Made by a program: the position numbers and the translations under genes
Shown here: piece after piece, positions 29,456-45,677 of the stretch
Numbering within the stretch: the first letter of the stretch is position 1
How the letters are laid out: the number at the start of each line of letters is the position of its first letter
Notes under the pieces: generated by a model
What the model was told of the DNA's origin: nothing
The model's database searches: none
What the model saw: the letters and a program-made list of their open reading frames with translations, nothing else
NCBI GenBank assembly: GCA_963665325.3
Contig: OZ224045.1
Coordinates: 1,152,001-1,216,000 of the forward strand
Reading direction: 5' to 3'
Length of the DNA stretch: 64,000 nucleotides
DNA from: Alphaproteobacteria bacterium
Lineage (GTDB): Bacteria > Pseudomonadota > Alphaproteobacteria > Bin95

Positions 29456-29531
29456 GCCGCAGTAGCTCAGCTGGTAGAGCAGCGCATTCGTAATGCGCGG
29501 GTCGGGAGTTCAAGTCTCTCCTGCGGCACCA
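29456..29531 (+). tRNA. tRNA-Thr(CGT)
   Basis: GCCGCAGTAGCTCAGCTGGTAGAGC-AGCGCATTCGTAATGCGC-...TTCAAGTCTCTCCTGCGGCACCA, 76 nt, anticodon CGT. Confidence 0.97.
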
Positions 29532-29668
29532 CCCCTCTTTCCCATAGCTGATCGCTGATCCTCATATATTATTGAAATAGCGCAGTATTTTTCTTTCTTG
29601 CATCTCACCGCCGAACACTGATATACGCTGATGCTCGGCATTTGGGGTGGTCTAAAAGGTGGCTTAAA

Positions 29669-30814: not shown

Positions 30815-30940
30815 TTCCCGACAAGCAGGATTGAGCGGCGGTATCATGCTGCCCGCGGCACAGCACACCATGATGGTCGGCAGGAACATGCACCAGAGCA
30901 TGTTGCTCCGTTCATTCCCACAACCGAGAAGGAAACCATC

Positions 30941-31246
30941 ATGGCTGCCCCGAATGTGACCGTACGGATATCGAGCACCTTTCTGACCCACTACTTCGGT
31001 AAGGGGCTTACCGACGAGCTCTACGCGATTGAACGCTACAAGACGACGATAGATGGCGAGATTCGCCGTCTTTCGAAGGGGCGGCAGGTAGACTGTCTGG
31101 CGCTCTCCCTCGCGGTCGTCCTTGAACTGCGGCCGGCAAGGAACGAGATAATCATATGCACGGGCAAGCGGCGTCGGGGTGGTATCCAATATTGGGGTGA
31201 CCTAGCGACGGGGCTTTTTGCCGAAGGCAAGCGGAAGCGGCAGTGA
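30941..31246 (+). CDS. hypothetical protein
   Basis: AAGGA RBS plus ATG; stop overlaps the next gene (GTGA). Confidence 0.55.
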   Translation: MAAPNVTVRISSTFLTHYFGKGLTDELYAIERYKTTIDGEIRRLSKGRQVDCLALSLAVVLELRPARNEIIICTGKRRRGGIQYWGDLATGLFAEGKRKRQ

Positions 31247-31860
31247 TGTTGGTCATTCCGTTCCCGACGAAACGACGGAGACGACCACACCGTCCAGGTA
31301 TCCGAGCTCTCTTTGCCATGCGACGTGCCGCAGGGCTCTGTCCTGAATGCGGCACGGCTCCACCAGAGAAAGGGTATCCCCTTTGTGCCACGTGTCTCGC
31401 CATCCGGCGACACCTACAGAAAATGGATATGCGTGATCGGACCGCCCTTAGGCGCAAGAAGGGCCTCTGCACTCGCTGTGGCAATAATCCTCCCGAGCCA
31501 GATATCGACAGCTGCCTAGCATGTGCTACGAGGGATCGCGCAAAAGCATTGCGTAATTACCGCCGTAGTTCAGCCATGCGCAAAGCGAGCCGCCTCTGTG
31601 TCCGGTGCGGTAAGAGACCGCCGGAGCGGGGAACGGATGACTGCGGGCAGTGTCGCGATCAACAACGACACCTCCGTCATCGCGCCATTCCATGTTTTCC
31701 CACCCGGTACACCGTCATCGAGCGACGGACCGGTGAGGATCATGGAACCTGGGAGAGCCTTGCCGAGGTTGCTGCCGCTCTGGCATATGCGAAGCTCTCG
31801 GCTGCTGACGTAGAGATCTTCACGGATGCCTCGCCCGCATATCCGCTCACCCTGCACTAG
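31243..31860 (+). CDS. Cys-rich repeat protein (three CxxC...CxxC units; putative zinc-binding)
   Basis: GLCPECG...CATC, GLCTRCG...CLAC, RLCVRCG...CGQC. Confidence 0.7.
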   Translation: MMLVIPFPTKRRRRPHRPGIRALFAMRRAAGLCPECGTAPPEKGYPLCATCLAIRRHLQKMDMRDRTALRRKKGLCTRCGNNPPEPDIDSCLACATRDRAKALRNYRRSSAMRKASRLCVRCGKRPPERGTDDCGQCRDQQRHLRHRAIPCFPTRYTVIERRTGEDHGTWESLAEVAAALAYAKLSAADVEIFTDASPAYPLTLH

Positions 31861-33075
31861 CAAGACTTATGTCCTAATGACCACCTTTGGGGGTGACACC
31901 GTGCGTGTCGCCCCATCATTTTGATAACGAATTATTTCCAAGGCGATCTTGCCTATTCGACATATATATAGAAAAGGGGCAACGGACGAATCCGTTGCCC
32001 CCGGAGGAGGAAAAGTGCGTGGTCCAAGAAGATACAAAGCATTTCAGCACCAGAGATGAACCACTCTGACCGACTAGGAAAGGACACAGACCGGTGAGAA
32101 TAACACTCCCCACTGGGAAATCCAACCACGTTGCCCGCACAGGGTGCGCAGGCACTCACAATTCCTCCCACCACAACAGGATGTCCTAAAGCCGTATTGG
32201 AGTCAAGCCGCAGGTCCGAACTGAGAATCGACAGTGAACGGGTATGACCACCACCGTACCAGTGCTCGACCAACGTCAGGGCTCATCCCCCATGCCGGTC
32301 ACACTGCATCTTCCTTACCTGTCTCGTCATCGCCAGCTCCCCATGCATATTGCTCAATATTATTATTGACTCCGGCGTCGTACTCTGCCAGCCTCCTGTC
32401 GTTCAGCACCAGAACTGAATCAGAGAATGACAGAATAGGAAAGGAAACCAACTATGCTGGTATAGCCAAGGTCAACCACTTACCGGTGGTGCTGACCTTC
32501 ATTCGCGGAGCCTTGCCGATCGGGAGGTTCCGCGAACACTTGTCCACGAACTCCGAATTACCCGTCATGTCGACCGCCTCACCCGAGGCGGCAACCCTAT
32601 ACTCAGAAACTACGACCATGGAGAAACACCATGACTGACTTCAAAATGCTAGCCTTACCTCTTTTCTGCCCCCTGACGTCGCCTGTCATTTGTATGACGA
32701 GCTCACACCGAAGGAATAGATGGCGATGGCGTCATTAACAGTATATTGCCGCCAGTGCTTGAGAACTTGGTGTGCTGAGGCATTACCTGATATAATTCGC
32801 CAATGCAACAGAGAACACTGCCCTCGACAGGCACCTGATAGCAAACAGTTTGATGCAAAGGCAGCGCTCTCTTTATTGGGTTCATTTGGCGCCCGAACAA
32901 CGGGTTATAAGATGTCCGCTCTAATTCATTACCTCGAGTAACTACAATCGTATAGAAAACACCATAATCTCTTCGCCTTGACTAACTCACCGTTGATCCC
33001 TTTTCATTTCCTGCAAAATGTCATTCAACTACCGACCATAATGAGACGCTGGATTCACGTCAACCTATTACAGAC

Positions 33076-33417
33076 TTGGTCAATCCCAATATTGATGAAC
33101 AAGAACAAGCACCTTATGAATTCATAAGAACATTCACAGTGGGTGCGACTGGAGACGATGTAAAGATATTGCAGAGATATTTGAATAACTTTGGATTTAT
33201 CGTCTCAGAGGTAGGATGGGGCTCACCAGGAAATGAGAGCACGTACTTCGGAATCAAGACAAAGCGGGCACTTGCACAGTACCAAGCCCACTACCACGAA
33301 GACATCCTCCTACCACTTGGTTTGAGTTATGGAACAGGTTATTTTGGCAAGAGCACAATCGCACATATAAATGGAAAAATTGTTGAAAAGCAGCTGAGTA
33401 TGCTGTTGACCAAATAG
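33076..33417 (+). CDS. peptidoglycan-binding domain protein (possibly a 5'-truncated fragment)
   Basis: GATGDDVKILQRYLN...YFGIKTKRALAQYQ...GYFGKST; frame open from 32986 without an ATG. Confidence 0.7.
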   Translation: MVNPNIDEQEQAPYEFIRTFTVGATGDDVKILQRYLNNFGFIVSEVGWGSPGNESTYFGIKTKRALAQYQAHYHEDILLPLGLSYGTGYFGKSTIAHINGKIVEKQLSMLLTK

Positions 33418-33480
33418 GGCATTTGGCGATTGAAAGTCGTTCCAGCAATTCCAACATACTGGCCATTCTTCCTTCCGATT

Positions 33481-34974
33481 TCAAAAATATCGTTCAAACA
33501 AGCACGATATTGGTTTTGGCACTTCAAAAGTTTGATTTGTAACTCGGTTTGGGAGGCCAGAAAAGACACTACCGCCTTTCTGAGCCTGACAAACCCAATC
33601 GTGTGGCTTGAAATAAGGAGTTTTCCCGATTACTGTCCGGTTCGAAAACGTGTTTTCAATCAGTATACGCTTTTCTGTGGGATCAAGTGTTTCGTATAGT
33701 AATGAAAGGCGTTTTGTGAGTTCGATAAAGTGTTTGAGATGATGGGAGAGGATGTTGGGATTTGGAAGCTGGTGGAGTTGTTCCTTTAGTTCTGTAAGTG
33801 TAGTTATCGTTTCATGTTTTTTTGTTAGATATGTTTGATTGTCAAGTGTTCCATCCACGAGTAGATCGGTGATACGTTCAAGTCGTTTCTCTTCTGCATG
33901 TATTCGTAGTTTCAAGGAGTGTTGTTGATGTTTCTGCTCAAGCTCGATACACGCGGCATTCCAGTTGCTTTCCATTTGGTCGCAAGCGTCCTTGGTAAAC
34001 TCGTACATTCGTAGTGCAGAAGTGATGTGTTCGTCCAAAACTTCTTCACGCAATGTCTTGGTCGGACAGTTGCGTCCATGACAGCGGTAATAAACATGTC
34101 CTTTCTGCAACTCGGGTGTCATAGGAAGTTTGCAAAGCCCGCAACGAAATAGACCACGAAACACATGGTGGTGCTTAGTCTTCTTGGGACCATACTTGCC
34201 AGCCTTGATGTCTTGTACTCGCTTGAACAGAGAAACGGGAATGATTGGTTCATGTATTCCTTGGTAAGTTTCACCGCATCCTCGCAAGAAAATGACTCCG
34301 GTATAGAAAGGGTTGCGAAGCATGGTCTCAATTCCACACATACTGAGAGGACGACCGTTCTGGTTTCTGAAGCCCTGCCGGTGTATCTCTTCGCGCAGAC
34401 TCCGTAGTGAGTGCTGGCCGGTGGCATACAACTCGAAGGCTTGTCTGACAAGCTGTGCTGTCGTCGGGCATGGTGTCTTCGCCTGTCCTTTCCCGTTGTC
34501 CAGATATCCCAAAGGTGCTCGGAAGGGATACAACCCCTGCTTTAGGCGGCCTCGGATACCCTTCCTGGTCTCCTCACGGAGGTTGCGGATATAGTCGGCG
34601 GCAATGACAGCGAGCATGTCAGCCGTGAGCCGTCCTCCCCGGGTAGTGAAGTCAAGACTTTCGGTCGCGACGTAGACGTCTATTCCCTGGTCGGGAAGCT
34701 CGGAGACAATCGACCAATCCTTGAGGTTCCTGGCGGAGCGGTCAATCTTGTGCATGATGAGACCTGTCGCCGCCCCCTTTCGCAGCTGTCGGAGCATGTT
34801 GTTGAAGACTGGCCTGCCGCTCTTTGCAGCAGTTTCTTTTTCTTCAAACCATTTCGTGACGTACAGCTCATTTTTTTGAGCAAAGGAGACAATAGCGTCC
34901 TTCTGCTCCTGCAAGGATACCCCCTCCCCTTGCTTCACTGTACTGACCCTAATGTATCCGTAACAAGTTTTCAT
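33481..34974 (-). CDS. large serine recombinase (resolvase + recombinase + zinc ribbon)
   Basis: YIRVST catalytic Ser, DRSAR, PLGY, NPFYTG, HEPII, CGLC...YYRC. Confidence 0.93.
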   Translation of the reverse strand: MKTCYGYIRVSTVKQGEGVSLQEQKDAIVSFAQKNELYVTKWFEEKETAAKSGRPVFNNMLRQLRKGAATGLIMHKIDRSARNLKDWSIVSELPDQGIDVYVATESLDFTTRGGRLTADMLAVIAADYIRNLREETRKGIRGRLKQGLYPFRAPLGYLDNGKGQAKTPCPTTAQLVRQAFELYATGQHSLRSLREEIHRQGFRNQNGRPLSMCGIETMLRNPFYTGVIFLRGCGETYQGIHEPIIPVSLFKRVQDIKAGKYGPKKTKHHHVFRGLFRCGLCKLPMTPELQKGHVYYRCHGRNCPTKTLREEVLDEHITSALRMYEFTKDACDQMESNWNAACIELEQKHQQHSLKLRIHAEEKRLERITDLLVDGTLDNQTYLTKKHETITTLTELKEQLHQLPNPNILSHHLKHFIELTKRLSLLYETLDPTEKRILIENTFSNRTVIGKTPYFKPHDWVCQAQKGGSVFSGLPNRVTNQTFEVPKPISCLFERYF

Positions 34975-35176
34975 ATATACAAATGATTAGTCATGACATT
35001 TCGATTCTCGCGTACTTTCAGAAAATTGCAAGTGAGTATCATCGCTCCACGGGAAGGAGTCTTCTTTCAGCATGCGAAGAAATACCTGCCGACACAGGTG
35101 CAGATATCGTTCAAGCTGTTCGTCATGTTCCATGGACAGCACTTTCAATGCGGAAGGCGTAAAAAAAAAGTCCCCG

Positions 35177-36346
35177 TCACTCCCGTCCAGGGGGAGGCAA
35201 GGTAGTCATGGTGAATGGTCGGCTCGGCTCGCCGTCGATCATCATGCGGATGAAGGCGTGATGGTTGTGCAGGTTCACCAGGTCCCGCGCTTCGCCGTAG
35301 TCAAGCTGCGCGGCGAGGAGCGGTGCGTCAGAGGCGCCGACCCTGAAGCAAATCATGGTACCGACATTCCCCATGATTGAGGCAAGGACCGTATCGCGGT
35401 TCTGTTTCGTGTGTTGCTGACTGAGGACGACGCCGAGGCAATATTTTCTTGTCTCCGAGAGCAGGTCGGCAAGGGTCTCGGTCGTGAAGGAATGAAACTC
35501 GTCGACGTAGAGGAAGAAGGCACGCCGATTCCCCTCGGGCACGTCGTGTCGGGTGAACGCGGCGTTTGTCATCGCGGACACCAGCAATCCGCCGAGGACG
35601 TTGGTAATGTCGCCCCCGATACGTCCCTTGGCGAGATTGACGATGAGTGTCTGCCCTTCGTCCATGATCCTACGGAACCGCAGCGGTTCCTTCGGCTCGC
35701 AGAGTGCGGTACGGACCACGGGATGGGCGAGGAACGCTCCGAGCTTGTTGGCGATCGGGGCCAATCCGTCCGCTGCCTTCTTGTAGTTCATCGCCGGATA
35801 TTCCCTGATCCAGAACTGCTTGACCTGTGGGTCCGCGATATGAGCGATGGTCTGCTTCCTGAAGGCGCTGTCGAGGAAGAGGCGCAGAATATCGCGAAGG
35901 TCGGTGCTGGGGGTATCGAGCAGTGCCAGGATGGCGTGGCGCAGCAAGTGCTCCATGCGCACGCCCCAGGCATCCGTCCACTGCTTGCGCAAGGTTTCGA
36001 TCAATCCGGAGGCGATGAGCGGTCGGAGTGCTGGCGAGGTCCGCGTCAGCGGGTTGTAACCGTACGGGCTGTTTGGATCGGCAATATCCCATGAAATGGC
36101 AGTGTCGGCACAACGCTCGGAGAGAGCGTCAGCAAGATCGCCATGCGGATCGATGAGAGCGAACCCTGTCCCGTGTTCGGCGTCCTGCACCGCCATATTC
36201 AAAAGCAGGGTGGATTTCCCCGTGCCGGTCTGACCGATGATATAGGTGTGCATGAAGCGGTCGTGCTCCCGAAGACCGAACGGCACCATGCCCTGCCGGT
36301 CATTCGCCCGGCCGAGTATGAGAAGTGGGTTGTTTGCACTTGCCAT
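35177..36346 (-). CDS. VirD4/TrwB-like coupling ATPase (HerA/DUF87-type), no TM anchor
   Basis: HTYIIGQTGTGKS, LIDPHGD, VNLAKGRIG, LYVDEFH, ETRKY, FRVG. Confidence 0.88.
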   Translation of the reverse strand: MASANNPLLILGRANDRQGMVPFGLREHDRFMHTYIIGQTGTGKSTLLLNMAVQDAEHGTGFALIDPHGDLADALSERCADTAISWDIADPNSPYGYNPLTRTSPALRPLIASGLIETLRKQWTDAWGVRMEHLLRHAILALLDTPSTDLRDILRLFLDSAFRKQTIAHIADPQVKQFWIREYPAMNYKKAADGLAPIANKLGAFLAHPVVRTALCEPKEPLRFRRIMDEGQTLIVNLAKGRIGGDITNVLGGLLVSAMTNAAFTRHDVPEGNRRAFFLYVDEFHSFTTETLADLLSETRKYCLGVVLSQQHTKQNRDTVLASIMGNVGTMICFRVGASDAPLLAAQLDYGEARDLVNLHNHHAFIRMMIDGEPSRPFTMTTLPPPGRE

Positions 36347-36797
36347 GGGGCAATGATGGCGTTTCGTCCTGCCGTGTACCACTCCCTGCCGTTCTCGATC
36401 ATCGCCATTCCCGAATATCGGGAATGGTCGGTACTTTGTTGCCGTCCCTTCGTTCTCCATTATGGATACAGAACCAAAGGAAGAAGGCCCAGGAAGTACT
36501 GAGGACGACGGACGTAGACATGTCTTACATATCGTGTTGTGGCAGTCGTGCCGGTCGTCATTGCTTTGGCGGTCATCTTGTTCGTTTTCGAGCCGGATAT
36601 ACCCGTTCTTCCCAAGGAGGATCGGTCGGCTCTGGATTGAGGCGTTCACGTCGATGAACCTGTCTCAGTCGGGGAGAGAGTAATCGCCGTTTGCGAGTCT
36701 CGTGCTCGGAGCAATGGGGTGAAAGGACGGCAGTCCTTTCGCGTCTCTTGTCTCCGGAGCGCGCTATATCTCCCACCTTACTCGCTACAGATATACC

Positions 36798-37154
36798 ATG
36801 CTCAAAGAATTTCTCTACGACCTGAAGTCCGCCAGAAAGCGTGCCGGTCTCACGCAATCCGATTGCGGCCACCTCGTCGGTGTCTCCAACAACGTCATCT
36901 CCCAGATTGAACTCGGACAGCGCCTTCCGACCGTGCGGGAGCTCTGCGCTCTCTCCGTCATTTACAATCAGCGCTTCGACAGTCTGTACACCGCCATTCT
37001 GCGCCGTGTATGCAGTGACGTTGCGGTAAAGCTCGCGTCATTGCCGGAAGCGCCCCACACTTGGCTCATCCGTCACGGACAGAGACGGACGCGGACGCTT
37101 GCTCGGCTGACGAAGACCTTACAAGCCGATTCCCTTAAGACGATATGCGGGTAG
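36798..37154 (+). CDS. XRE-family helix-turn-helix protein
   Basis: RKRAGLTQSDCGHLVGVSNNVISQIELGQRLP. Confidence 0.85.
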   Translation: MLKEFLYDLKSARKRAGLTQSDCGHLVGVSNNVISQIELGQRLPTVRELCALSVIYNQRFDSLYTAILRRVCSDVAVKLASLPEAPHTWLIRHGQRRTRTLARLTKTLQADSLKTICG

Positions 37155-37636
37155 GCAGTCAGCGTGTGCTCTCCGTCGCCACACGCACCGAGCGGGTTGG
37201 CTGCGTCGTCATGGAAGATGGCGACCTGATGTTCTGGCAAGGAGCCGCGAACGCCGGCAGAGACCCGATGGAGGCTGGTGCCCGGCTTGCCCGCTGGGTC
37301 CGCGACTACCGCCCCGACATCATCGTCTCTCAGGACCCCAACGCGCCCGGCAGGAAGCACGGCACTCAGGTCGATATCCTCCGGGCATTTGCCCGTGTCG
37401 CGGGCGAAGCTGTGGCGGTCAACCTTGTCGTGCGACGCGAGCATCCCTTTGAAAATGTATATGTCGAAGCGCAACATCTGGCAGCGCAGTTTCCGGACTT
37501 GCAGGACATGACACCGGAGAAACCTCCGATCTGGCGCAAGGAACCATACCGTCTGGTGTTCTTCGAGGCCCTGGCGCTGGTGCGGGACGCGGGTCTGCTC
37601 GCGCCATTCTCGCAGATGCCCGAGGACGACCGGTAG
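37145..37636 (+). CDS. hypothetical protein, possibly a degenerate RuvC/RNase H-like fold
   Basis: RVLSVATRTERVGCVVMEDG three-strand start and YRPDIIVSQD resemble the RuvC pattern, with the acidic residues altered. Confidence 0.55.
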   Translation: MRVGSQRVLSVATRTERVGCVVMEDGDLMFWQGAANAGRDPMEAGARLARWVRDYRPDIIVSQDPNAPGRKHGTQVDILRAFARVAGEAVAVNLVVRREHPFENVYVEAQHLAAQFPDLQDMTPEKPPIWRKEPYRLVFFEALALVRDAGLLAPFSQMPEDDR

Positions 37637-37784
37637 CCAACCGGTTCGTTTGATTGTTGCGTAGTGCCGTCGTGGCATCGACGTCTGTGCGCATGCGCTT
37701 GCGTGCCCGCCGGCGAGGCAATGGCGATATTGCCTTGCGCGCGGTCATGTGCTTGGCTCCATGTTGCAAACACGCCTTGGACTT

Positions 37785-37945
37785 CCCGCTCTGTCGGGTC
37801 GTCCGCTGAATAGAAGAGCCTGATACCCGGCAAGGGGTAGCTCCCCGCGCTTGGCGAATAAGCGGAAACCTCCTGATTCCAGGGTGTGTTTGCAACGGCC
37901 CGACGCCAGCCGGCGTCGAGCTACGCAACCGACTGGAGGAAGACC
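37785..37945 (+). promoter_or_regulatory. conserved structured 161-nt leader, copy 1
   Basis: Homologous to 44109-44269; contains the GGGG-TAGCT-CCCC hairpin and the GGAGG RBS. Confidence 0.75.
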
Positions 37946-38848
37946 ATGTTCAACCGCTTCGCCATTACCACCGCCATCGCCTTTGCGCTTGCCGCCTGTG
38001 GAGGCGGCGGGTCGGGAGGCAGTCCGAAAACCACCATGAACGACGAGAGTAAGACCGGAAATACGCCCATGGCGGAAAGGCCAGCCCCGCAAGCCGTAAG
38101 GACCTTAGGTGAAAACGAACTGCTAATCGGCAGGGCTAGTAGGTCTCAGCATGTAGTGGGCTCGGAGTATATCAGAAAGCCGATTCCCGCTGGGGTTACG
38201 TGGGTAACGGCGACTGAATATCGCGTATACGATGTTGTCAATAGGAGTTACAGCCCTCAAGCAGCAGAGGAAGATGGACTGCTTAGCCAGTCCTTCTATT
38301 ACGGTCATTGGTCAGACAGAAATATGATGCTGTATTTCGGCGGTTGGCAATACGATCCGCTGACGATAAGGCGGATAGCTCGTTTCAACGTCAGCCTAGG
38401 GAATGATGAAATCATAGGGTCGGTTTCTGGCGTTCAGCCACTAACAAAATTTGCAGACAGTCCCCGCATCCAATCTCAGAAGATGGTGAATTACGGCGGG
38501 ACTCTTGTTGGTTTTACCACAAGCAACAAACAGCCTTTGGGAGCAGAAGTAAGCATCCAACTCAACTTAGGAAACGACGTGACAGGCACATTTGATCTCG
38601 CCGGGCTCTCCACAATTGAACGCGATGGCTCTCTGAAACCCTTTCTTGGGGGGAACCTCCACCATGACATTGCTGTCACCGGCAATACCTTCACTACAAC
38701 GGGCGGTGACCCTGGAACCGTAACAGGCTTCTTTGCCGGTGAGACTCACCAAGCCGCAGCAGGAACAGTCCAGCATTCCGCTTTCACCGGCGCTTTCGGT
38801 GCCGAACCTTTTGGCTCCTCGGAACCAACGGCGCGAGCGCCGAATTGA
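37946..38848 (+). CDS. surface lipoprotein with TbpB-like C-terminal beta-barrel
   Basis: Lipobox LAAC-GGGGSGG; C-terminal VTGFFAGETHQAAAGTV...GAFGA. Confidence 0.75.
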   Translation: MFNRFAITTAIAFALAACGGGGSGGSPKTTMNDESKTGNTPMAERPAPQAVRTLGENELLIGRASRSQHVVGSEYIRKPIPAGVTWVTATEYRVYDVVNRSYSPQAAEEDGLLSQSFYYGHWSDRNMMLYFGGWQYDPLTIRRIARFNVSLGNDEIIGSVSGVQPLTKFADSPRIQSQKMVNYGGTLVGFTTSNKQPLGAEVSIQLNLGNDVTGTFDLAGLSTIERDGSLKPFLGGNLHHDIAVTGNTFTTTGGDPGTVTGFFAGETHQAAAGTVQHSAFTGAFGAEPFGSSEPTARAPN

Positions 38849-39061
38849 CAGCCTCCGATAGTTATGGCGAGGCCATCAACGACACTCGTATTCGCAGCAC
38901 CGGTGGTGTCAGCGGAACGCTCCTCGCCCGCCTTTACGGAAACGACCATGAACAAATCGCAGGCTCAATCGAGCGTGAAGACCTCATAGCAGCGACTCCC
39001 GCTCAAGCCCAAGGGTAGTCGCGTAAGCGAGCTAATGTCGCAAAGCAGCGTTCAGGGTTGG

Positions 39062-40024
39062 TCATACCCGACCGATCCTGAACGCCGACAATTCTGCCCT
39101 GAGCCAGTCGCCCTCCAGCAGATCAAGGTCGGGCATCGGTGGTGAGAATACCGTGCCGAATACCTCCCATGACCGAAACAGCATCCGCGAGCGCACCGAT
39201 GGTGCGTACTGCTCAACCAGCGGGAGGAGTTGTGCGAGGCGTGCTTCGTCGTTGACAACCGTCAAGACTAGCATCGGTGCACGGAGCCGGAGGTGGTCGC
39301 GGTAGCGGTTGCCTCCGAGATAGTTTTCATATTGCAAGAGCGAGCGCCGCCAGCTCTTTCTGTTGAAATTTGCCGACACGGCTGGTTCGGTTGCGCGATC
39401 GGCCTCAACAAGAAAGCAGCGATACCGACTGCCCTCGGGTGTCTTGTACTCCAGGCCGAAGAGCGCGTCGGGAACAAGGTCGATGCAACGCGTCTGCCCC
39501 TCGTCGTGGATATGCACCGGAGCGCGAAGCGCGACATCGGCGCGACCGAGAAGAAACGACTGCGAGAGGAACGCGAGGTCATCCCGTCCCCTCACCGCCG
39601 CTTCAATCGACGCGGTGATGCAGGCGACCATGCAGGCATGCAGCCACGGACCGTTCGTTGCCGGACGATGCAGATACCAGTACCCCGCGTCACTGAGCGC
39701 TTGCTCTGAGGCTGGCGTGAGATCGTAGACCAACTGCTTGTAGCGGCTGTCGAGCGTGCGGAACTGTTGTGGCGGCCGGGAGAGGTAGGCGCTGCCGTGC
39801 GGTGTGTTCTCCTCGTTGAAGAGATCCGTGAGTCGCTCTTTCGCGCGTTTCCCGCTTTTGTGCGTGTCCTTGGCGAGTGCCAGAAGAAACGACGATGGGA
39901 GCGGTCCATGCTCGTAGAGTTTTTGAAACCATAGAAGGTCGCGGTCCGTCGGTGTAACCCGCTTGCCGCTCGATATGCGATGCGCGCGCTTGCGCCGTCC
40001 GATGGCGTCGTGCTGTTCGCTCAT
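39062..40024 (-). CDS. replication-relaxation (Replic_Relax) family protein
   Basis: N-terminal HTH-like TDRDLLWFQKL, YDLT, WLH, PDALFGL...FLVEADRATEP (PD-(D/E)xK-like); directly after a coupling-protein gene. Confidence 0.85.
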   Translation of the reverse strand: MSEQHDAIGRRKRAHRISSGKRVTPTDRDLLWFQKLYEHGPLPSSFLLALAKDTHKSGKRAKERLTDLFNEENTPHGSAYLSRPPQQFRTLDSRYKQLVYDLTPASEQALSDAGYWYLHRPATNGPWLHACMVACITASIEAAVRGRDDLAFLSQSFLLGRADVALRAPVHIHDEGQTRCIDLVPDALFGLEYKTPEGSRYRCFLVEADRATEPAVSANFNRKSWRRSLLQYENYLGGNRYRDHLRLRAPMLVLTVVNDEARLAQLLPLVEQYAPSVRSRMLFRSWEVFGTVFSPPMPDLDLLEGDWLRAELSAFRIGRV

Positions 40025-40025
40025 C

Positions 40026-42245
40026 TCAGAGCTCAAAGCCGGCGTCGGTCCCGCTCTCGTCTTGAGGACGCCGTTTGTTCGACCGGTTGCTCTTGCCAGT
40101 CGGTGTTTCCATGGACGGGGCCGGTGTCTCGTCCTGTCCGCCATTCCGGTGCCTGCGCCGCCTGCCTCGGCGCTGTTCTTGTCTCGGTTCGTCCTTCTGT
40201 TCAACCGTTTCGGAGGCCATTGGCCCTCGCGTTTGGAACTGCTGATCAATGACGGAGTGGTGCTCCGCGTAGCGCTTGCGCATGCTCGACCGCAGGCCGT
40301 CTCTCTCCTTCGGAGTCATTCTCGGTTGCCGTTCAAGCGCGCCGAGGGGGAACCGGAGCGGCACCGCCGTTCTTGTCGTGCCCCGCAGATGTGCGGCGAA
40401 GCAACCCTTGGGCTGTCGTTCAATGAAGTCCGGGTCGCAGGAGAGCATCGATGCAAGTGCGCGAGCGTCCTTGGCGGAGACGCCACCGGCGAACTTTATG
40501 GACGTATTGGCAGCGAAGGCGTCCTGCAAACGTGGCTCAAGCTGTCCGAGGTACTGGTGCGCCAGCACCATACCCACCTTGTACTTGCGCGCCTGGGCGA
40601 GGATGATGCCGATGTTGCGGTCGAAATAGTCGGCTGCCTCGTCGATATAGACAAATGTGGGCAGCCGTTCCCGTTCCGGCAGGGTCGCCCGCTCCTGTGC
40701 CGCTTGGGCGATGAGCGCGATAAAGAAGCGCCCGAATATCTCGGTGCCCTGTTCCTTGAGCAAATCCTTGGCGGTGTTGATGAGGATAACCTTGCCGGCG
40801 TTCATCTCGTTGAAGAGGTCGAGCTTCGAGCGTGGCGAAGAGAACATCCGATCGAAGGTCTGATTCTCGAGAATACCCCAGAGCCGGCGCAGTATCTGCT
40901 TTTTGGTCAGGTCGAACTCGCGCGAGGAAAATTCGGTCTCGAAGAAGTGCCGCGCGGAGCCCGTGAGCGTGGCAATGTGCTCGGCGAACTGCACATGGCC
41001 GTTTGGTTCCATAAGTTGACGGAGGGTATGGATGGTGGCGTTCGGCACCACGAGCATGAGTCGGGTGACGTAGCGGAATACCACATTCTGCTTCTGCGTC
41101 ATTTCGGCGGAAAGGAGCGACCCGAGCACGAAATCGTAGAGCTCCAGAATGGAATTAGTCAGTCGTTCTCGTTCAAGCGGCGCGTAGCCGGTAAGGCGGT
41201 CAAGGCCCGCGTCAAAGAGATTGAGCGATACCGGATACTCGACATCGCTCGGATCGATCAGCACGATTCGGTCGTGCAATGCTCCGCCAGGGGCAAACAC
41301 CGCGAGGCCGGCGATGGTCTCGATGAGGTCGCCCTGACTGTCGAGGACAATCACGGAGCGCTTCCCTGCCGCCACCGCCTCAAGGTCGCAGCCAACAAGG
41401 TACTGCAAGGTCTGGGTTTTGCCGTGTCCGCTGCCGGCAACGATATGGTGGTGCTCAAAGCGCGCGTCGGTCGGTAGCGGGAAGTCGATCTGCTGCGTGA
41501 AGAAATCAACAAGCGGCGTGCCACCAAGATAGGTGTCGAGAAGCTCCGCCGGATCGCTGAGTAACGATCTTGACGGTAGCTTCGGTGCACGGGAGAGTGC
41601 CTTCGCATTGTCGGGATTGCCTCCCGATGCGGCAATCGCGTTTCGCTCCAGACGACCGCGCAGCCGATTGCCTACGTCGGCGCGGACCAGCTCCTCGTCA
41701 AAGAATGCCGAGCAGGCGTTCTCCGTCATGGCGCCGGCACGGTCGAGATTGTTGACGAGATCGGTGGCGACGGTGATGTCCGTGTCGCTTGGCGCCTCCG
41801 CGAGGAGCGCAGGACAGGCGTGAAAGATCGGGGAGAGGAACCCCACGACCGCCTGTTGCAGCACCGCTCTCGCCTGCGGAAGGTTTCTGACAAGCGCGAG
41901 TTGGTAGTTGAGCGCGTCGCGCACTTCCCACCACTCAGCCACCGTGCGCTTCGTACACCAGTCGATGTCGGGAAGCCGGAACATAGATTCATAGTTGAAC
42001 AGTCGGGTTACCAGAATGGCGATCGGCTCAGCCTGGCGATGCTCGGCACTCAATCCGAAGGCGCTGAGCACATCGACGACAACATCCACAATGAGCCGGT
42101 CGCGCCCATGCGCTTCGATAAGGTCATGCTTTCTGAACAATCGACGCGCACGGTCTGCAAGCGCCCGTGCTTCATCCTCGTCATCGTACCAGAAGAGGCC
42201 ATGCGTGAAGGCGTGCCATCGGGGACCGAGGTGGAGGCGAAGCAT
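40026..42245 (-). CDS. VirD4/TraD-like type IV coupling ATPase with long N-terminal extension
   Basis: HHHIVAGSGHGKT, VLDSQGD, VYIDEA, AQARKYKVGMVLAHQYLGQ. Confidence 0.88.
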   Translation of the reverse strand: MLRLHLGPRWHAFTHGLFWYDDEDEARALADRARRLFRKHDLIEAHGRDRLIVDVVVDVLSAFGLSAEHRQAEPIAILVTRLFNYESMFRLPDIDWCTKRTVAEWWEVRDALNYQLALVRNLPQARAVLQQAVVGFLSPIFHACPALLAEAPSDTDITVATDLVNNLDRAGAMTENACSAFFDEELVRADVGNRLRGRLERNAIAASGGNPDNAKALSRAPKLPSRSLLSDPAELLDTYLGGTPLVDFFTQQIDFPLPTDARFEHHHIVAGSGHGKTQTLQYLVGCDLEAVAAGKRSVIVLDSQGDLIETIAGLAVFAPGGALHDRIVLIDPSDVEYPVSLNLFDAGLDRLTGYAPLERERLTNSILELYDFVLGSLLSAEMTQKQNVVFRYVTRLMLVVPNATIHTLRQLMEPNGHVQFAEHIATLTGSARHFFETEFSSREFDLTKKQILRRLWGILENQTFDRMFSSPRSKLDLFNEMNAGKVILINTAKDLLKEQGTEIFGRFFIALIAQAAQERATLPERERLPTFVYIDEAADYFDRNIGIILAQARKYKVGMVLAHQYLGQLEPRLQDAFAANTSIKFAGGVSAKDARALASMLSCDPDFIERQPKGCFAAHLRGTTRTAVPLRFPLGALERQPRMTPKERDGLRSSMRKRYAEHHSVIDQQFQTRGPMASETVEQKDEPRQEQRRGRRRRHRNGGQDETPAPSMETPTGKSNRSNKRRPQDESGTDAGFEL

Positions 42246-42254
42246 CTGAATGCC

Positions 42255-42761
42255 TCAGAGCACAAACCGTCGAGCTTCCTCGACCGGAAGCGGACGAACC
42301 TTACGTTGCTCGGTACCGCCCCAGTGCTTTGCACTCTCAAGCAGTTGGCGGAGATAGCCGGCGGCATTCTCCAGCCATGCCTCTTTGCGAATGAGCTCGA
42401 CGACACTGACGCAGGAGAAGTATCGACCGTGGAGCAAATCCTTGACCAGAATTGTCTCTCGCTTCTCGGTGAAATACCAGAAAGCGCCGCCGCCTCCCGC
42501 AAACACGCTCAAAAGAAATGCCAGCACCATACCCAACCCCATCGCGAGAAGAGCGAATACGATGAGAAAGATCGCGACCCCTGCGATGACGGTGTTTCTG
42601 AACAAGTGTTCCTGTTCCGCCTGAATCATGACCGCGTTGTCGAGTCGGTAGCGCTTGAGCAATTCCTTCTCCTCGTCATCCAGCTCAATCTTGCCCCATA
42701 ACTTGAATCGTACTCTTCTCAGTCTTCCAAGGGTTTGTTCCCGTTTGAATAGCAGTTCCAT
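42255..42761 (-). CDS. hypothetical two-TM membrane protein, first gene of the mobilisation operon
   Basis: AAGGAAG RBS; hydrophobic hairpin IAGVAIFLIVFALLAMGLGMVLAFLLSVFAGG. Confidence 0.75.
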   Translation of the reverse strand: MELLFKREQTLGRLRRVRFKLWGKIELDDEEKELLKRYRLDNAVMIQAEQEHLFRNTVIAGVAIFLIVFALLAMGLGMVLAFLLSVFAGGGGAFWYFTEKRETILVKDLLHGRYFSCVSVVELIRKEAWLENAAGYLRQLLESAKHWGGTEQRKVRPLPVEEARRFVL

Positions 42762-43104
42762 TTCTTCTTCCTTTTCTGTCTCTCTGCTATTCCCGTTCTC
42801 TCTCAATGTGACCGTAGGGAACATTGGGAGAGGGGAGAGGGCGAGGGGTGGGGTTTGGGGTAGCTATGCATGAACCCGCCCAGGGTTCATTCTCTTTGGA
42901 GGAGGAAAGAGAATGAAGTCGCGGAAAGCGGCGGAGACGCGGGGGCATGGAATGTGTCGCTCTGGATGGGGATATGGTCGGCAGGGTCATGGGGATACAG
43001 GAAGTCCTTGGGCGTGTCCCCATCGGGAGGGCTCGCGGGTTTAGCATGATTGGATAGAGAGATGGGCGGCCGGGTGTGTGCACGCCCGACCGCCCTGCTC
43101 CCAT

Positions 43105-43302
43105 TCAGGAGTGTCGGGCAGGAGTTTCGCGACGGTCCATCCTGGACTGGAGCCAGTCGAGCACCTCCTCCTCTACCCATCCCACGCGGTTCTCGCCGAG
43201 CTTGACCCGCTTGGGGAATCTGCCCGCCTTTTCCAGCCGTGCGATGTGCTGCGGTGAGTACAAGACCAACTCCTTCAGCTGGCGTTTTGAAAGTATCCTC
43301 AT
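43105..43302 (-). CDS. AlpA-family regulator / excisionase
   Basis: RLEKAGRFPKRVKLGENRVGWVEEEV; typical partner of P4-like integrases. Confidence 0.9.
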   Translation of the reverse strand: MRILSKRQLKELVLYSPQHIARLEKAGRFPKRVKLGENRVGWVEEEVLDWLQSRMDRRETPARHS

Positions 43303-43402
43303 CTCGATGCCTCCGTGAGTGGAGAGCATCGCGATGCCCCAGGGTTGACAATGACCTAGGTGGCGCGATGGTAGCGGCAATCTGGAGTACGGAAAAGCGC
43401 CC

Positions 43403-44017
43403 ATGTCCGCACAGACAGTCGTTGCAGAAACGAGACGAAGGGCAACCTACCAGGATGTGCTCAATGCGCCGCCGCACAAGGTGGCCGAGGTTGTTGAGGG
43501 AGTGCTCTACACCAACCCGAGACCGGCACCACGACATGCGATAGCCAGTTCCGGAATTGGCGCAAGCATTTCACCTCCTTTCAACTACGGACGCGGCGGC
43601 CCTGGTGGCTGGTGGATCATCGATGAGCCGGAACTGCATCTCGATGAAGATATATTGGTGCCCGACCTCGCAGGCTGGCGGCGGGAGCGTATGTCGGCGA
43701 TCCCCGCCACCGCGTATTTCACGCTTGCTCCGGACTGGGTGTGCGAAGTGCTCTCGCCCTCCACTCGAGCGCTCGACCAGGGACGGAAACGGGCACTCTA
43801 TGCCCGCGAAGGGGTAGGCTATCTGTGGTTCGTCGATCCCGACGCCCGCACGCTTGAAGCGTTTGAGCTGAACGACCGCCGCTGGGTGTTGCTTGAGACA
43901 CTGACGGGCGATGCCACGGTCTCGCTGCCGCCGTTCGAGGCGATCCAATTCAGCCTCAGTGACCTCTGGGTCGATATAGAGTCGGAGCAGGACACCGGTC
44001 GGGACGGAACCGTCTAG
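43403..44017 (+). CDS. Uma2 family endonuclease
   Basis: ATYQD, EPELHL, PDLAGW, PDWVCEVLSPST, K..LYA. Confidence 0.92.
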   Translation: MSAQTVVAETRRRATYQDVLNAPPHKVAEVVEGVLYTNPRPAPRHAIASSGIGASISPPFNYGRGGPGGWWIIDEPELHLDEDILVPDLAGWRRERMSAIPATAYFTLAPDWVCEVLSPSTRALDQGRKRALYAREGVGYLWFVDPDARTLEAFELNDRRWVLLETLTGDATVSLPPFEAIQFSLSDLWVDIESEQDTGRDGTV

Positions 44018-44108
44018 CCTGATCGGTCCCCTCATGGACGGCCCTCAGCACACTGCTTGACTCATTCTTTGCCCGCTTTTACCGTCATATCTGCGACGTT
44101 CACACAGA

Positions 44109-44269
44109 CCCGCTCTGTCGGGTCGCCCGCTGAATATAACAGCCTGATACCCAGCACGGGGTAGCTCCCCATGCGTGGTGAATAGGCGGGACTTCACATC
44201 TGTTCTGTGTGACGTCGCAACGGCCCGGCGCCAGCCGGTGCGGGTCACGCAACCGACTGGAGAGGGATC
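44109..44269 (+). promoter_or_regulatory. conserved structured 161-nt leader, copy 2
   Basis: Homologous to 37785-37945; GACCCG-CTCTGT-CGGGTC and GGGG-TAGCT-CCCC hairpins. Confidence 0.75.
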
Positions 44270-45250
44270 ATGTTCAACCGCTTCACTATTGCTGCCGCCG
44301 TCATCCTTGCGCTTGCCGCCTGCGGAGGCGGCGGTTCAGCAGTTGTTGGGCCGGTTGGCTCCAAGATGGAATCTGAATCCAGCTCAGGCACCAACAGTGT
44401 GCTATCCAAGTACCATCGCCATCTAAACGACGGAGATTCAAATGACGCATGGCCTGAAGTCGGAGACTACACCCATATCTTTCATTTCCTCGTTGGCGAA
44501 TCCATCGGTGATGGATTATTTGCCATAGCTCCATCAAATGTTTCGTGTCAGGAAGAGAGTTGTTGGGCTTCCGAAGCAGCGGCTAATTCGCTAGGGTCGG
44601 TTGCGGGAGTTCAACGTGTTATGGAGCATGCCAATATCCCCGTGTATCGAATACACGGAGAGAATACCTTTGCGGGGTTCGACTACAACACCTACGGAGC
44701 GTGGCTCGAATTCTCATCGTTCACCGTTGCGCGCACCTGTGACATCGGCGAAGATTGCGGCTTACGCGCCGCCTTCGACAGTGCCATACCAGCCGTTGGC
44801 GGCCAGCCGTCTGGATCCAAACCGAGAGGGCTAGGGTCGGCCTCTTGGCTCGGTGTCGTGATTGCCGCCGATACGCAAACTTACAATCTCATCCTCGGTG
44901 ACGCGGAGATAAGTATTAACGACCTAACTGCAGTCACTCCTCTTGTGGATGTCACACTGACTAGGCTGTGGGATGTCGATGCCGGTATCGCACGCGCCGA
45001 CATTCGATGGCATGGCCTTCCCATTAGTGATAGCAGTCAAACCATCAATGTGCCTGTAGTCAACGCTTCGCCGGCTGGTGCGTTTGGGCGTGGCCACATC
45101 CCGTTTCCCTACTCCGGTGTAGTCACCCACGACGGACGCGATGACTACGTAATGGGACAGTTCTTCGGCAATGCGCATCAGGAGGTAAGCGGAAAATTCG
45201 TACATCGAGCCACATCCACGGCAGGAGTGTTCGGCGGGAAACGTCAATGA
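44270..45250 (+). CDS. surface lipoprotein with TbpB-like C-terminal beta-barrel
   Basis: Lipobox LAAC-GGGGS; YGAWLE, ASWLG, MGQFFGNAHQEVSGKF...GVFGGKR. Confidence 0.78.
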   Translation: MFNRFTIAAAVILALAACGGGGSAVVGPVGSKMESESSSGTNSVLSKYHRHLNDGDSNDAWPEVGDYTHIFHFLVGESIGDGLFAIAPSNVSCQEESCWASEAAANSLGSVAGVQRVMEHANIPVYRIHGENTFAGFDYNTYGAWLEFSSFTVARTCDIGEDCGLRAAFDSAIPAVGGQPSGSKPRGLGSASWLGVVIAADTQTYNLILGDAEISINDLTAVTPLVDVTLTRLWDVDAGIARADIRWHGLPISDSSQTINVPVVNASPAGAFGRGHIPFPYSGVVTHDGRDDYVMGQFFGNAHQEVSGKFVHRATSTAGVFGGKRQ

Positions 45251-45655
45251 GGCGACGCGCTTGCGAATGCTGATCGGCGAGCTGCCGACGACGTGCCAGT
45301 TCGTCTGGTGGACCGAGTCCGCGTTGCTGGTGAACGCTCAATGCCCCAAGCAGCATGCTAACGCCGCTAATGTCGGGGCAGGACGAGTTGCCACCACCAC
45401 CAACAAGGTGATTGACACTGTCTGCTCACGGAGGCATTAGCAGATACCGAACGGCGGACTGTCCAGACGAACCTCGCGGTCGGGGATAATCTGCTGCTTC
45501 GCCCCGTTCTCTGGAGGACGCATATCCTCCGGAGAACATTCTCTCGCAATACCATACTCCCTCACCGAGTCACCTTCTGGATGGGGGATAGAAAGGTGGA
45601 TAGATATTTGTCTAGAGACAAATTACCTACTAATAACAACATATTGTCACATGCG

Positions 45656-45677
45656 TCAAGTCTCTCCTGCGGCACCA
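45656..45677 (+). repeat. attR: duplicated 3' end of tRNA-Thr
   Basis: Exact match to 29510-29531. Confidence 0.95.

Follow-up and report, generated by a model that had tools for sequence, protein, structure and literature searches.

The RNA catalogued as sRNA-Xcc1 (Rfam family RF02221) was described as an 88-nucleotide (nt) Xanthomonas RNA by Northern blot and end mapping (PMC2996969). It is reported to lie upstream of symE, in the same orientation, in the most widespread integron cassette of Xanthomonas (bioRxiv 10.1101/2025.06.18.660453), and upstream of an ORF6N gene in APSE phages (bioRxiv 10.1101/2020.03.17.996009). Seven expressed copies are reported for Xylella (PMC12189769), and the structure held by Rfam was revised with R-scape (PMC11701678, Table 2). 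In the accessible text of this literature, no long form, no helix built from the 5' end of the transcript and no cross-phylum leader class is described for sRNA-Xcc1, and supplementary homologue lists, including that of Chen et al. 2011, may include such forms. Here we describe two leader RNAs, each placed immediately upstream of a gene for a candidate surface lipoprotein, in a 64,000-nt stretch of an alphaproteobacterial genome (assembly GCA_963665325.3, contig OZ224045.1, positions 1,152,001 to 1,216,000; called the window below and numbered from 1 to 64,000). We read these leaders as a long-form variant of the known, mechanistically unexplained sRNA-Xcc1 family, because their short relatives reach the RF02221 threshold but the window copies do not.

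Several other systems offer points of comparison. The C4 RNA of phages P1 and P7 (RF01695) is embedded in the leader of the operon that it controls, and sequences upstream of it are complementary to the RNA itself. The window leaders resemble C4 in being RNAs of an operon leader with complementary sequence upstream, but they have no Rfam match to it and gave only a weak signal in a test for self-targeting, and they are not classed here as C4 members. In mycoplasmas, the Vlp and Vsp lipoproteins carry a conserved 5' untranslated region and signal peptide on divergent mature parts. The arrangement of a conserved 5' region and signal on divergent bodies is similar by analogy only; the window shows no evident switching by site-specific inversion or by repeat length, and its 5' region folds as an RNA that recurs across phyla.

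The nearest experimentally studied analogue, when compared by description only, appears to be the set of Bartonella RNAs called Brt1-9, which are multi-copy, highly structured and about 200 nt long, with a gene immediately behind each of them (Tu et al. 2016, PMC5387305). Their authors propose a cis switch that possibly also acts in trans (PMC5387305). As described there, Brt RNAs share with the present family the presence of several structured copies ahead of genes, and two short relatives of the window leaders (loci L170 and L107) also precede genes for XRE-type helix-turn-helix (HTH) proteins. In contrast to the window copies, which have no T-run, Brt RNAs are described as ending in a proposed terminator, with the next gene nearly silent. 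Our literature search found no publication that joins sRNA-Xcc1 and Bartonella.

The two leader copies were initially recognized as homologous stretches of the same length. Copy A (37785-37945) precedes the gene for protein P0001 and copy B (44109-44269) precedes the gene for P0002, 6.3 kilobases (kb) away on the same genomic island. Each is 161 nt long, and its last base adjoins the ATG. An ungapped comparison gives 10 mismatches in nt 1-80, which agrees with the count first put forward, and 46 in nt 81-161, while a MAFFT alignment of the two copies contains one indel. Both copies carry CCCGCTCTGTCGGG, as well as GGGGTAGCTCCCC with flanks that read CCG/TGG in copy A versus CCA/TGG in copy B, and both have CGCAACCGACTGGAG ahead of the start codon. 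The likeness continues through the codons of the signal peptide (57 of 69 nt identical), and P0001 and P0002 both begin with MFNRF..LAACGGGGS before their sequences part ways, so the reported extent of homology was accurate. The lower G+C content noted for the mature parts was confirmed as well (52.8% and 54.4%, versus 64.1% for the window). The leader boundaries did require revision. The 161-nt stretches are real, but the RNA would start 22 nt earlier in copy A (at 37763) and 17 nt earlier in copy B (at 44092), because the 5' strand of a long helix, termed P1, lies there.

The elements of the two leaders are listed in Table 1. In P1, the 15-22 nt directly upstream of CCCGC pair with the 15-22 nt directly before CAACGG. 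The helix encloses, in order, region 1 (CCCGCUCU), the 5' strand of a second helix (S1a, GUCGGGUCG), an arm formed by helices P3, P4 and P5, and a pyrimidine-rich linker. Within the arm, P3 is followed by the loop GAAUAnAAnA, then by P4, by P5 with its top GGGG-UAGCU-CCCC, and by the loop RAAUAR. On the 3' side of the second P1 strand (P1b) lie (C)AA and then S1b (CGGCCCGRC), which pairs with S1a according to RNAalifold. The linker between the P3 3' strand (P3b) and P1b is pyrimidine-rich across copies (CCUCC, CUCUC or CUUCC) and resembles an anti-Shine-Dalgarno sequence. The segment between P3b and S1b, comprising linker and P1b, pairs with the start region of its own gene at -16.90 kcal/mol and with the start regions of other copies at -14.74 kcal/mol.

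The decisive feature is P1, whose strands vary in sequence among copies while their complementarity is kept. Within the genus, 35 copies provide 23 different 5' strands; the pairing energy is -27.5 kcal/mol for matched strands versus -11.0 kcal/mol for 1156 mismatched combinations, and a strand's own partner is its best partner in 22 of 23 representatives. A cross-phylum set of 80 copies behaves in the same manner (-28.5 versus -14.0 kcal/mol), with pairing at or below -18 kcal/mol in 77 copies and the own partner ranked best in 60. Over all 122 copies with P1, the helix has 14-25 pairs (mean 17.9) and contains 174 G.U pairs versus 6 single A.C mismatches. This asymmetry implies selection on an RNA transcribed from the gene strand. 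P1 was not recovered by RNAalifold from the MAFFT alignment because its strands do not align by sequence.

The remaining helices were judged by counting base pairs in three alignments, two of them fitted to a covariance model, termed R1, that has 137 positions and 26 pairs and was seeded by 31 copies from the genus, all of them long forms. In a MAFFT alignment of 31 distinct sequences (A4), 95.0% of cells are paired and 9 pairs are changed on both sides, compared with 2.1 +/- 1.1 pairs in shuffled controls, none of 500 of which reached the observed number, and with 32-56% of cells paired when the strands were slid. When 59 distinct sequences were fitted to R1 (A7), 93.9% of cells are paired and 19 of the 26 pairs are changed on both sides (shuffles 7.5 +/- 1.8 pairs, reached in 0 of 500; slid 28-54% paired). 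For 78 distinct cross-phylum sequences fitted to R1 (A8), the values are 96.1% of cells paired and 18 of 26 pairs changed on both sides in 188 cells (shuffles 46 +/- 10 cells; slid 27-54% paired). These counts back S1, P3, P4 and P5, and the ordinary gene duplication that had been named as the competing outcome was not seen. The three inner pairs of S1, which lie outside the bias of the search pattern, take up to six pair types in A8. Invariant unpaired loop nucleotides (alignments A6 and A7) sit inside this conserved, covarying structure (A7 and A8). Covariation and the G.U asymmetry show that the leaders are real structured RNA on the gene strand, as the preliminary description had supposed.

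Searches of Rfam at gathering scores returned nothing on either leader. Below that threshold, RF02221 matched copy A with 27.2 bits (E value 0.012; gathering score 53) and did not match copy B at E ≤ 10, and of 20 related loci a single one, L023, matched (31.7 bits). In the alignments of the model to copy A and L023, S1 corresponds to the closing helix, and P3, the loops and P4 correspond to the first hairpin. The link became firmer with distant R1 matches, which include short forms that have no P5. Six of 13 short-form loci match RF02221, three of them near its gathering score of 53 (L170 at 55.3 bits, L088 at 53.3 and L107 at 51.4) and three others, L087, L084 and L151, at 34-37 bits. After classification of 133 distinct leaders, P1 was present in 115 of 117 long forms and in 12 of 16 short forms. 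The three loci closest to RF02221 (L170, L107 and L088) have no P1, and instead show a local hairpin or nothing clear at that place.

The window copies thus share with sRNA-Xcc1 the same GC-rich closing helix S1 of 9 base pairs (bp), the same arm consisting of P3, an internal loop with AAUAnAAnA opposite GAAUAR and a three-pair P4, and (A/G)CC after S1. Intermediates found with one model link them to sequences above the Rfam threshold, and both kinds of RNA are multi-copy, are found on mobile DNA and precede a gene that has their own orientation. They differ in that the window copies carry an insertion of about 31 nt, P5, in P4, and in that their second helix, P1 (14-25 bp), uses the 5' end of the transcript and not a local hairpin, with S1 crossing P1. 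Furthermore, the window copies have no U-tract after S1, an open reading frame (ORF) follows directly behind, and their scores fall below the gathering score. We read this as one superfamily of three grades, namely classic sRNA-Xcc1, a short form with a 5'-end helix, and a long form with both the 5'-end helix and P5, to which the window copies belong. P1b sits where the 3' strand of the classic second hairpin does, and therefore the same junction of three helices can be built from S1, P3 and P1, with S1 as a pseudoknot across P1. Coexistence of S1 and P1 fits the covariation of both helices. The original suggestion that the leader may be an undescribed cis-regulatory RNA thus needs qualification: it is a relative of an RNA known to Rfam, even though the Rfam model at its threshold misses the window copies.

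A promoter appears to be part of the conserved unit. In 90 of 126 copies a TTG(A/C)N hexamer precedes the first P1 pair, its end 24-33 nt away (mode 29-30), compared with 8 of 126 in a control window, and family copies are enriched for A at -11 and T at -7. Because the -35-like hexamer lies at this spacing, the transcription start site would fall at the base of P1. Coupling to the gene is likewise tight. A same-strand ORF call follows 119 of the 133 distinct leaders, beginning a median of 26 nt after the model match (interquartile range 21-37) and within 60 nt in 99 cases. Of the 107 distinct products whose genes start within 120 nt, a crude heuristic sorts 36 as lipoprotein-like, 33 as having a hydrophobic N-terminus and 38 as neither. 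Most have no Pfam family. The families that were found are Glyco_transf_25 (10), CsgG (5), OMP_b-brl (4), TbpB_B_D (3) and Peptidase_S8, LpoB, HTH_3 and Rhodanese (2 each), with leucine-rich repeat (LRR), ankyrin and Sel1 families in single proteins. The listing of downstream genes thus yields glycosyltransferases of family 25, CsgG, barrels, lipoproteins, repeat proteins and many orphans.

The leader was first regarded as the property of two lipoprotein genes, and this did not hold. A blastn search with copy A (E ≤ 1e-3) found 13 places in its own genome, and R1 likewise gave 13 matches there (E ≤ 0.01). Two of the R1 matches are duplicate pairs located on contig C3. Several copies in this genome are truncated or degenerate (C1:804499, C1:813436, C4:731455 and C5:250718). 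Two places, C1:804384-813438 and C3:1328980-1337951, form an identical pair, each with two degenerate or truncated leaders and glycosyltransferase-25-like ORFs, and represent either a large duplication or assembly redundancy. The sampled order comprises one family, three genera and 37 genomes. R1 matched 15 of 16 other genomes of the genus, with 3-12 matches each, and none of 20 genomes from the two sister genera. Elsewhere in the class, when one genome was searched per family, 9 of 150 other families were positive, often with 2-4 matches per genome. The leader is therefore far from restricted to the window, and outside it precedes glycosyltransferase-25 genes, other lipoproteins and secreted proteins.

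An even wider distribution emerged when an IUPAC core pattern was run against species-representative genomes, where it matched at least 97 stretches at no fewer than 80 loci. R1 confirmed 79 of the 80 listed loci, nearly all across its full length. The record titles, among the matches listed, name Alphaproteobacteria, Gammaproteobacteria, Pseudomonadales, Acidobacteria, Bryobacterales, Vicinamibacterales, Latescibacterota, Binatota, Gemmatimonadota, Nitrospirales, Rhodothermales, Dehalococcoidia and others. The long form with a near-identical core occurs in records of at least eight phyla among the matches listed (loci L103-L182), mostly metagenome-assembled genomes, and the proteins encoded behind these leaders include ankyrin, LRR and Sel1 repeat types. 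Such spread across phyla suggests horizontal transfer of the module. A plasmid collection gave no blastn match at E ≤ 1e-3, and four stretches in viral contigs match the core pattern. At locus L066 (G003:C3; matches 441-577 and 1501-1637), together with a third copy at G003:C3:1262200, leaders recur on one strand at a spacing of about 1.1-1.3 kb with a lipoprotein-like ORF behind each, a tandem array that can be likened to the five sRNA-Xcc1 copies reported for a Xylella island.

With the fold, the promoter spacing, the tight coupling to an ORF, the spread of the family and the link to sRNA-Xcc1 established, we consider that each stretch is probably a self-contained promoter and leader module, whose RNA of about 150 nt carries the sRNA-Xcc1 core and acts in cis on the following gene. 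We infer both that the leader regulates the gene behind it and the route by which it might do so. Transcription would begin at the base of the long, copy-specific helix P1, and the leader would fold as a junction of P1, S1 and the P3-P4-P5 arm. S1, a 9-bp helix, would link GUCGGGNNN to NNNCCCGRC across P1, and the arm would bear the two near-invariant purine-rich loops, GAAUAnAAnA and RAAUAR. The folded leader would then act on a gene that starts approximately 25-50 nt downstream, which in the window is one of the two surface-lipoprotein genes. The likeliest route would be a structure-dependent step after initiation, perhaps competition for the 3' strand of S1, or else a 5' end that is processed or stabilised, and a factor shared by many phyla would read this step.

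A number of observations weigh against this proposal. A T-run occurs within 51 nt after S1 in just 19 of 122 copies and in neither window copy, so there is no general terminator, and an intrinsic terminator after S1 was rejected on these grounds. Apart from a weak site inside leader A (37871-37884), none of the 15 terminator-like sites in 37400-45400 separates a leader from its gene. Making S1b unavailable shifts the predicted accessibility of the Shine-Dalgarno site by more than 0.1 in 30 of 89 copies, downward in 16 and upward in 14, and leaves 59 unchanged; masking of the ribosome site coupled to S1 was rejected because no consistent change was found. S1b can pair with the next 36 nt at or below -10 kcal/mol in 100 of 122 copies, but a hairpin competing with S1 in this way is not specific, since 76% of mismatched pairings also reach -10 kcal/mol. 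Other points concern the structure and its surroundings. Alignments A7 and A8 were fitted to R1, and conservation at the start of S1 and in the loops of A8 is partly by construction, because the search pattern preset GTCGGG, with which S1 begins, as well as portions of the two loops. When folded as single sequences, the two copies are unexceptional (z scores -1.05 and -2.01). The CCCG-CTCTGT-CGGG hairpin (P2) proposed at the outset is present in both copies, with its pairing kept in 86.9% of cells, but it does not covary and its 3' arm belongs to S1. Finally, a scan of 37400-45400 with an Escherichia coli-type sigma-70 consensus calls no promoter upstream of either leader, and ORF starts were assigned by a simple heuristic. 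Antitermination of the RfaH/ops or LoaP type was also considered. The sequence GGGGTAGC resembles ops; a partner of either type is unlikely because the genome has only one NusG-family match, and the candidate was rejected.

The leader might instead be the gene for a stable trans-acting small RNA (sRNA) that is ended or cut before the ORF, with the gene reached by occasional read-through. Published accounts of sRNA-Xcc1 and of the Brt RNAs lean in this direction. A discrete band of about 100 nt with mapped ends is reported for sRNA-Xcc1 (PMC2996969), seven homologues are expressed in Xylella (PMC12189769), trans action has been proposed for sRNA-Xcc1 and for Bartonella Brt1, and Brt RNAs of 194-203 nt are described as abundant, with very little transcription of the XRE genes that follow (PMC5387305). 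The two short forms nearest to RF02221 that have an ORF call, L170 and L107, precede XRE-type HTH genes too. However, the published claims of trans action rest, in the accessible parts of these papers, on prediction, knock-down or over-expression, and no mapped target was found in those parts. The rarity of T-runs after S1, the ORF at a fixed short distance with its Shine-Dalgarno site, and the joint inheritance of the leader's 3' part and the signal peptide also speak against a separate sRNA gene, which we regard as unlikely. The sequence around S1 would suit a processing signal, in which the core mimics a tRNA acceptor and RNase P would cut 5' of S1, freeing P1a and leaving an mRNA with a structured 5' end. 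Bacterial RNase P is reported to pair with a 3' RCCA and to prefer U at position -1, and the C4 precursor of phages P1 and P7 is cited as one of its substrates (PMC4919922, the latter in its reference list). S1 begins with G; of 122 copies, U precedes S1a in 71, and S1b is followed by NCC in 95, by RCC in 79 and by RCCA in 53. The RF02221 model itself begins at the first base of S1 and has aCCC after it, and a universal enzyme would fit the cross-phylum spread. The geometry speaks against such a mimic: the S1-P3 stack runs on continuously through its 5' strand, which mirrors the arrangement in a tRNA, and S1 plus P3 make 15 bp and not 12. Moreover, just 58% of copies have U(-1) and 43% have RCCA, the NCCA may be no more than the loop of a downstream hairpin, and ARAGORN calls no tRNA-like gene at the leaders, all of which leaves cleavage by RNase P quite unlikely. 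A broader version would unite the long and short forms in a single RNA device found across phyla, with a junction core recognised by some universal cellular machine, for which RNase P recognising S1 (U / G-stem-RCCA) is the most concrete candidate; it is in our estimation similarly improbable. If it were true, a single form of post-transcriptional control, so far undescribed, would be common to genes for the envelope, the surface and mobile elements in Proteobacteria, Acidobacteriota, Gemmatimonadota, Latescibacterota, Nitrospirota, Bacteroidota and Chloroflexota, and after cleavage the copy-specific P1 would keep the severed 5' piece attached.

Invariant unpaired purines framed by covarying helices, a closing helix whose 3' strand can pair downstream, and presence in many phyla are all qualities of a riboswitch, in which the loops between P3 and P4 would bind a small molecule or ion, stabilise S1 and alter expression of an envelope gene; a riboswitch was also proposed by the authors of the Brt study (PMC5387305). 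Against this stand the absence of any metabolic theme downstream, where glycosyltransferase 25, CsgG, barrels, TbpB-like proteins, repeat proteins, XRE proteins and orphans are mixed, the lack of a general terminator or ribosome-site platform, and the occurrence of 13 copies in one genome before very different genes. We hold this reading to be very doubtful. The resemblance to phage C4-type antisense elements, which had been ventured as a guess, would make P1b a barcode that also pairs with the translation start region of its own gene, as the C4 sequences a' and b' do with a2 and b2. The pairing of P1a with P1b does resemble that of a1 and b1 with C4 in the immI system of phage P1. Further, C4, IsrK and sRNA-Xcc1 stand side by side in a table of a Xylella genome (PMC12189769). 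No match to Rfam C4, c4-2 or c4-a1b1 was obtained in any of four E-value scans at limits from E ≤ 1 to E ≤ 10, and a scan of the window at gathering scores gave none either. For P1b, pairing with the start region of its own gene reaches -13.96 kcal/mol and with those of others -12.10 kcal/mol (standard deviation 3.77), beating 61% of them (87 copies), and with its own 260 nt downstream at -19.3 versus -18.2 kcal/mol for those of others, beating 59% (122 copies). Shifts that small are expected from shared base composition, and a C4-type cassette is accordingly a highly improbable description. There remains an ordinary duplication or an inverted repeat resembling a miniature inverted-repeat transposable element, with no RNA function. 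The two copies are indeed 6.3 kb apart on one island and share a signal peptide, and some genome copies are truncated or degenerate. Yet the arms of the inverted repeat differ among copies and stay complementary, whereas transposon ends would be alike, P1 has its excess of G.U over A.C, orientation and ORF distance are fixed, the promoter lies at a fixed spacing, and four further helices covary. A plain duplication or DNA repeat is refuted by the covariation and strand asymmetry, and its probability is negligible.

The proteins encoded behind the two leaders are candidates for surface lipoproteins of the Slam-dependent type, which includes TbpB, LbpB, NHBA/GNA2132 and fHbp. In both, a LAAC lipobox at residues 15-18 is followed by a Gly-rich linker. 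Their mature bodies were thought to be unalike except for a short terminal motif. They are divergent, but about 107 C-terminal columns of the two family profiles align (hhalign, probability 98.8%, E 1e-16), so the homology is longer than it seemed. The homologous C-terminal domains also match known barrels by profile: that of the P0001 family (A10) matches NHBA/GNA2132 over about 105 residues (E 7e-4), and that of P0002 (A9) gives 14 of 14 PDB rows that are TbpB, LbpB or NHBA chains, at E values of 0.02-0.39. In contrast to established members, the Pfam TbpB_B_D domain is below its cut-off of 26 in P0002 (22.4 bits) and gives no match in P0001, the N-terminal halves of both proteins have no known relatives, and the window contains no Slam gene. 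AlphaFold models of both proteins were unusable (predicted local distance difference test scores 32.7 and 32.9).

Besides the queries, P0001 has 10 relatives and P0002 has 8. The signal peptides of the 8 closest homologues of P0002 (43-67% identity) are all different from its own, and the MFNRF..LAACGGGG signal recurs with other bodies on P0011-P0014 and on the more distant P0019 and P0020. From this we conclude that the promoter, leader and signal form a unit joined to different passengers, and these data support the modular cassette with swappable passenger that was envisaged originally. The genome has 15 matches to the Slam family PF04575, the nearest of which (C1:1229642) lies about 13.6 kb past the end of the window. 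Several matches are paired on contigs C2, C4 and C5, and the set is unusually large, which implies many surface lipoproteins. A leader copy at C5:260437-260570 (- strand) precedes, by about 4 kb, a Slam match of the same strand (C5:255393-256250), which suggests a leader-lipoprotein-Slam operon.

Both lipoprotein genes lie in a genomic island of about 16.2 kb (29456-45677) that is inserted at a tRNA gene, as indicated by the tRNA, an integrase, a direct repeat and deviating G+C content (54-60% inside, 63-68% outside). The tRNA-Thr gene, the 22-nt repeat, the tyrosine integrase, the serine recombinase and the genes for Replic_Relax and coupling-like proteins bear out the earlier view that the cassette is carried on a mobile island (Table 1). 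The island also encodes HerA/TraD-like ATPases and an Uma2 nuclease. Within it, positions 43073-43336 (- strand) give a full-length match to the Rfam family 'Ruegeria trans44 sRNA' (RF02649; 193 bits, gathering score 108). This match overlaps a 216-amino-acid (aa) ORF without a Pfam family (42887-43537, - strand), and what it marks may be a feature conserved in islands of this kind and not an independent sRNA.

Table 1. Coordinates of leader elements, genes and island features in the window, with the basis of each assignment.
Feature	Positions	Strand	Basis
Leader A, candidate -35 (CTTGCG)	37734-37739	+	Sequence and family hexamer statistics (putative); spacing to P1a 23 nt, below the mode of 29-30 nt in the family
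Leader A, P1 5' strand (P1a)	37763-37781	+	RNAduplex (19 bp, -32.8 kcal/mol, partner 37878-37896); family pairing test
Leader A, region 1 (CTTCCCGCTCT)	37782-37792	+	Conserved CCCG; contains 5' arm of CCCG/CGGG hairpin
Leader A, S1 5' strand S1a (GTCGGGTCG)	37793-37801	+	Pairs with 37896-37904; RNAalifold, pair counts
Leader A, core P3-P4-P5 and loops	37802-37866	+	Pair counts with changes on both sides
Leader A, P3	37802-37807 with 37861-37866	+	Pair counts
Leader A, conserved loops GAATAGAAGA and GAATA	within 37802-37866	+	Conservation
Leader A, P4 (GCC with GGC)	37818-37820 with 37853-37855	+	Pair counts
Leader A, P5, top GGGG-TAGCT-CCCC	37827-37852	+	Pair counts
Leader A, pyrimidine-rich linker (AACCTCCTGAT)	37867-37877	+	Sequence
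Leader A, P1 3' strand (P1b)	37878-37895	+	RNAduplex
Leader A, S1 3' strand S1b (CGGCCCGAC)	37896-37904	+	RNAalifold, pair counts
Leader A, GCCA tail and 3' arm of possible hairpin with S1b (CGACGCC-AGCC-GGCGTCG)	37905-37918	+	Tail counts; hairpin not specific
Leader A, Shine-Dalgarno GGAGG	37935-37939	+	Sequence
Lipoprotein gene A (P0001, 300 aa)	37946-38848	+	Translation: lipobox LAAC, GGGG linker; candidate C-terminal barrel by family profile
Leader B, -35 (CTTGAC)	44056-44061	+	Sequence and family statistics; 30 nt upstream of P1a
Leader B, P1 5' strand	44092-44108	+	RNAduplex (16 bp, one bulge, -27.5 kcal/mol, partner 44204-44219)
Leader B, body	44109-44236	+	Covariance-model match, 139.5 bits
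Leader B, region 1	44109-44116	+	
Leader B, S1a	44117-44125	+	
Leader B, P3a	44126-44131	+	
Leader B, loops, P4 and P5	44132-44184	+	
Leader B, P3b	44185-44190	+	
Leader B, linker	44191-44203	+	
Leader B, P1b	44204-44219	+	
Leader B, S1b	44221-44229	+	
Leader B, GCCA tail	44230-44236	+	
Lipoprotein gene B (P0002, 326 aa)	44270-45250	+	Translation; Pfam TbpB_B_D sub-threshold
tRNA-Thr (CGT)	29456-29531	+	ARAGORN, Rfam tRNA match
Left 22-nt direct repeat (tRNA-Thr 3' end)	29510-29531	+	Exact repeat, script
Tyrosine integrase	29642-30814	+	Pfam Arm-DNA-bind_3 (2e-18), Phage_integrase (4e-12), Phage_int_M (3.7e-11)
Large serine recombinase	33481-34974	-	Pfam Resolvase (3.5e-30), Recombinase, Zn_ribbon_recom
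Transfer-type genes	39062-42245	-	Pfam; overlapping ORF calls with provisional starts
Replic_Relax protein	39062-40249	-	Pfam
Coupling-protein-like ATPase	40026-42245	-	Pfam
Right 22-nt repeat copy (attR-like), island end	45656-45677	+	Exact repeat

The catalogue entry for sRNA-Xcc1 is that of a small RNA acting in trans, known from plant pathogens and mobile elements and lacking a mechanism. The window reveals the same core as a much larger, uncatalogued class that has a 5'-end helix, an extra arm and a predicted promoter of its own. This class sits directly before genes for lipoproteins, outer-membrane proteins, lipopolysaccharide glycosyltransferases and repeat proteins, reaches up to a dozen copies per genome, is present in records from many phyla, and is missed by the Rfam model. 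A conserved and widespread fold that has no recognisable terminator or ribosome-site platform points to a control step not yet described. For annotation, the leader may mark sets of co-controlled surface genes. In the case of the two genes described here, promoter, leader and signal peptide travel together and become attached to lipoproteins with different bodies.

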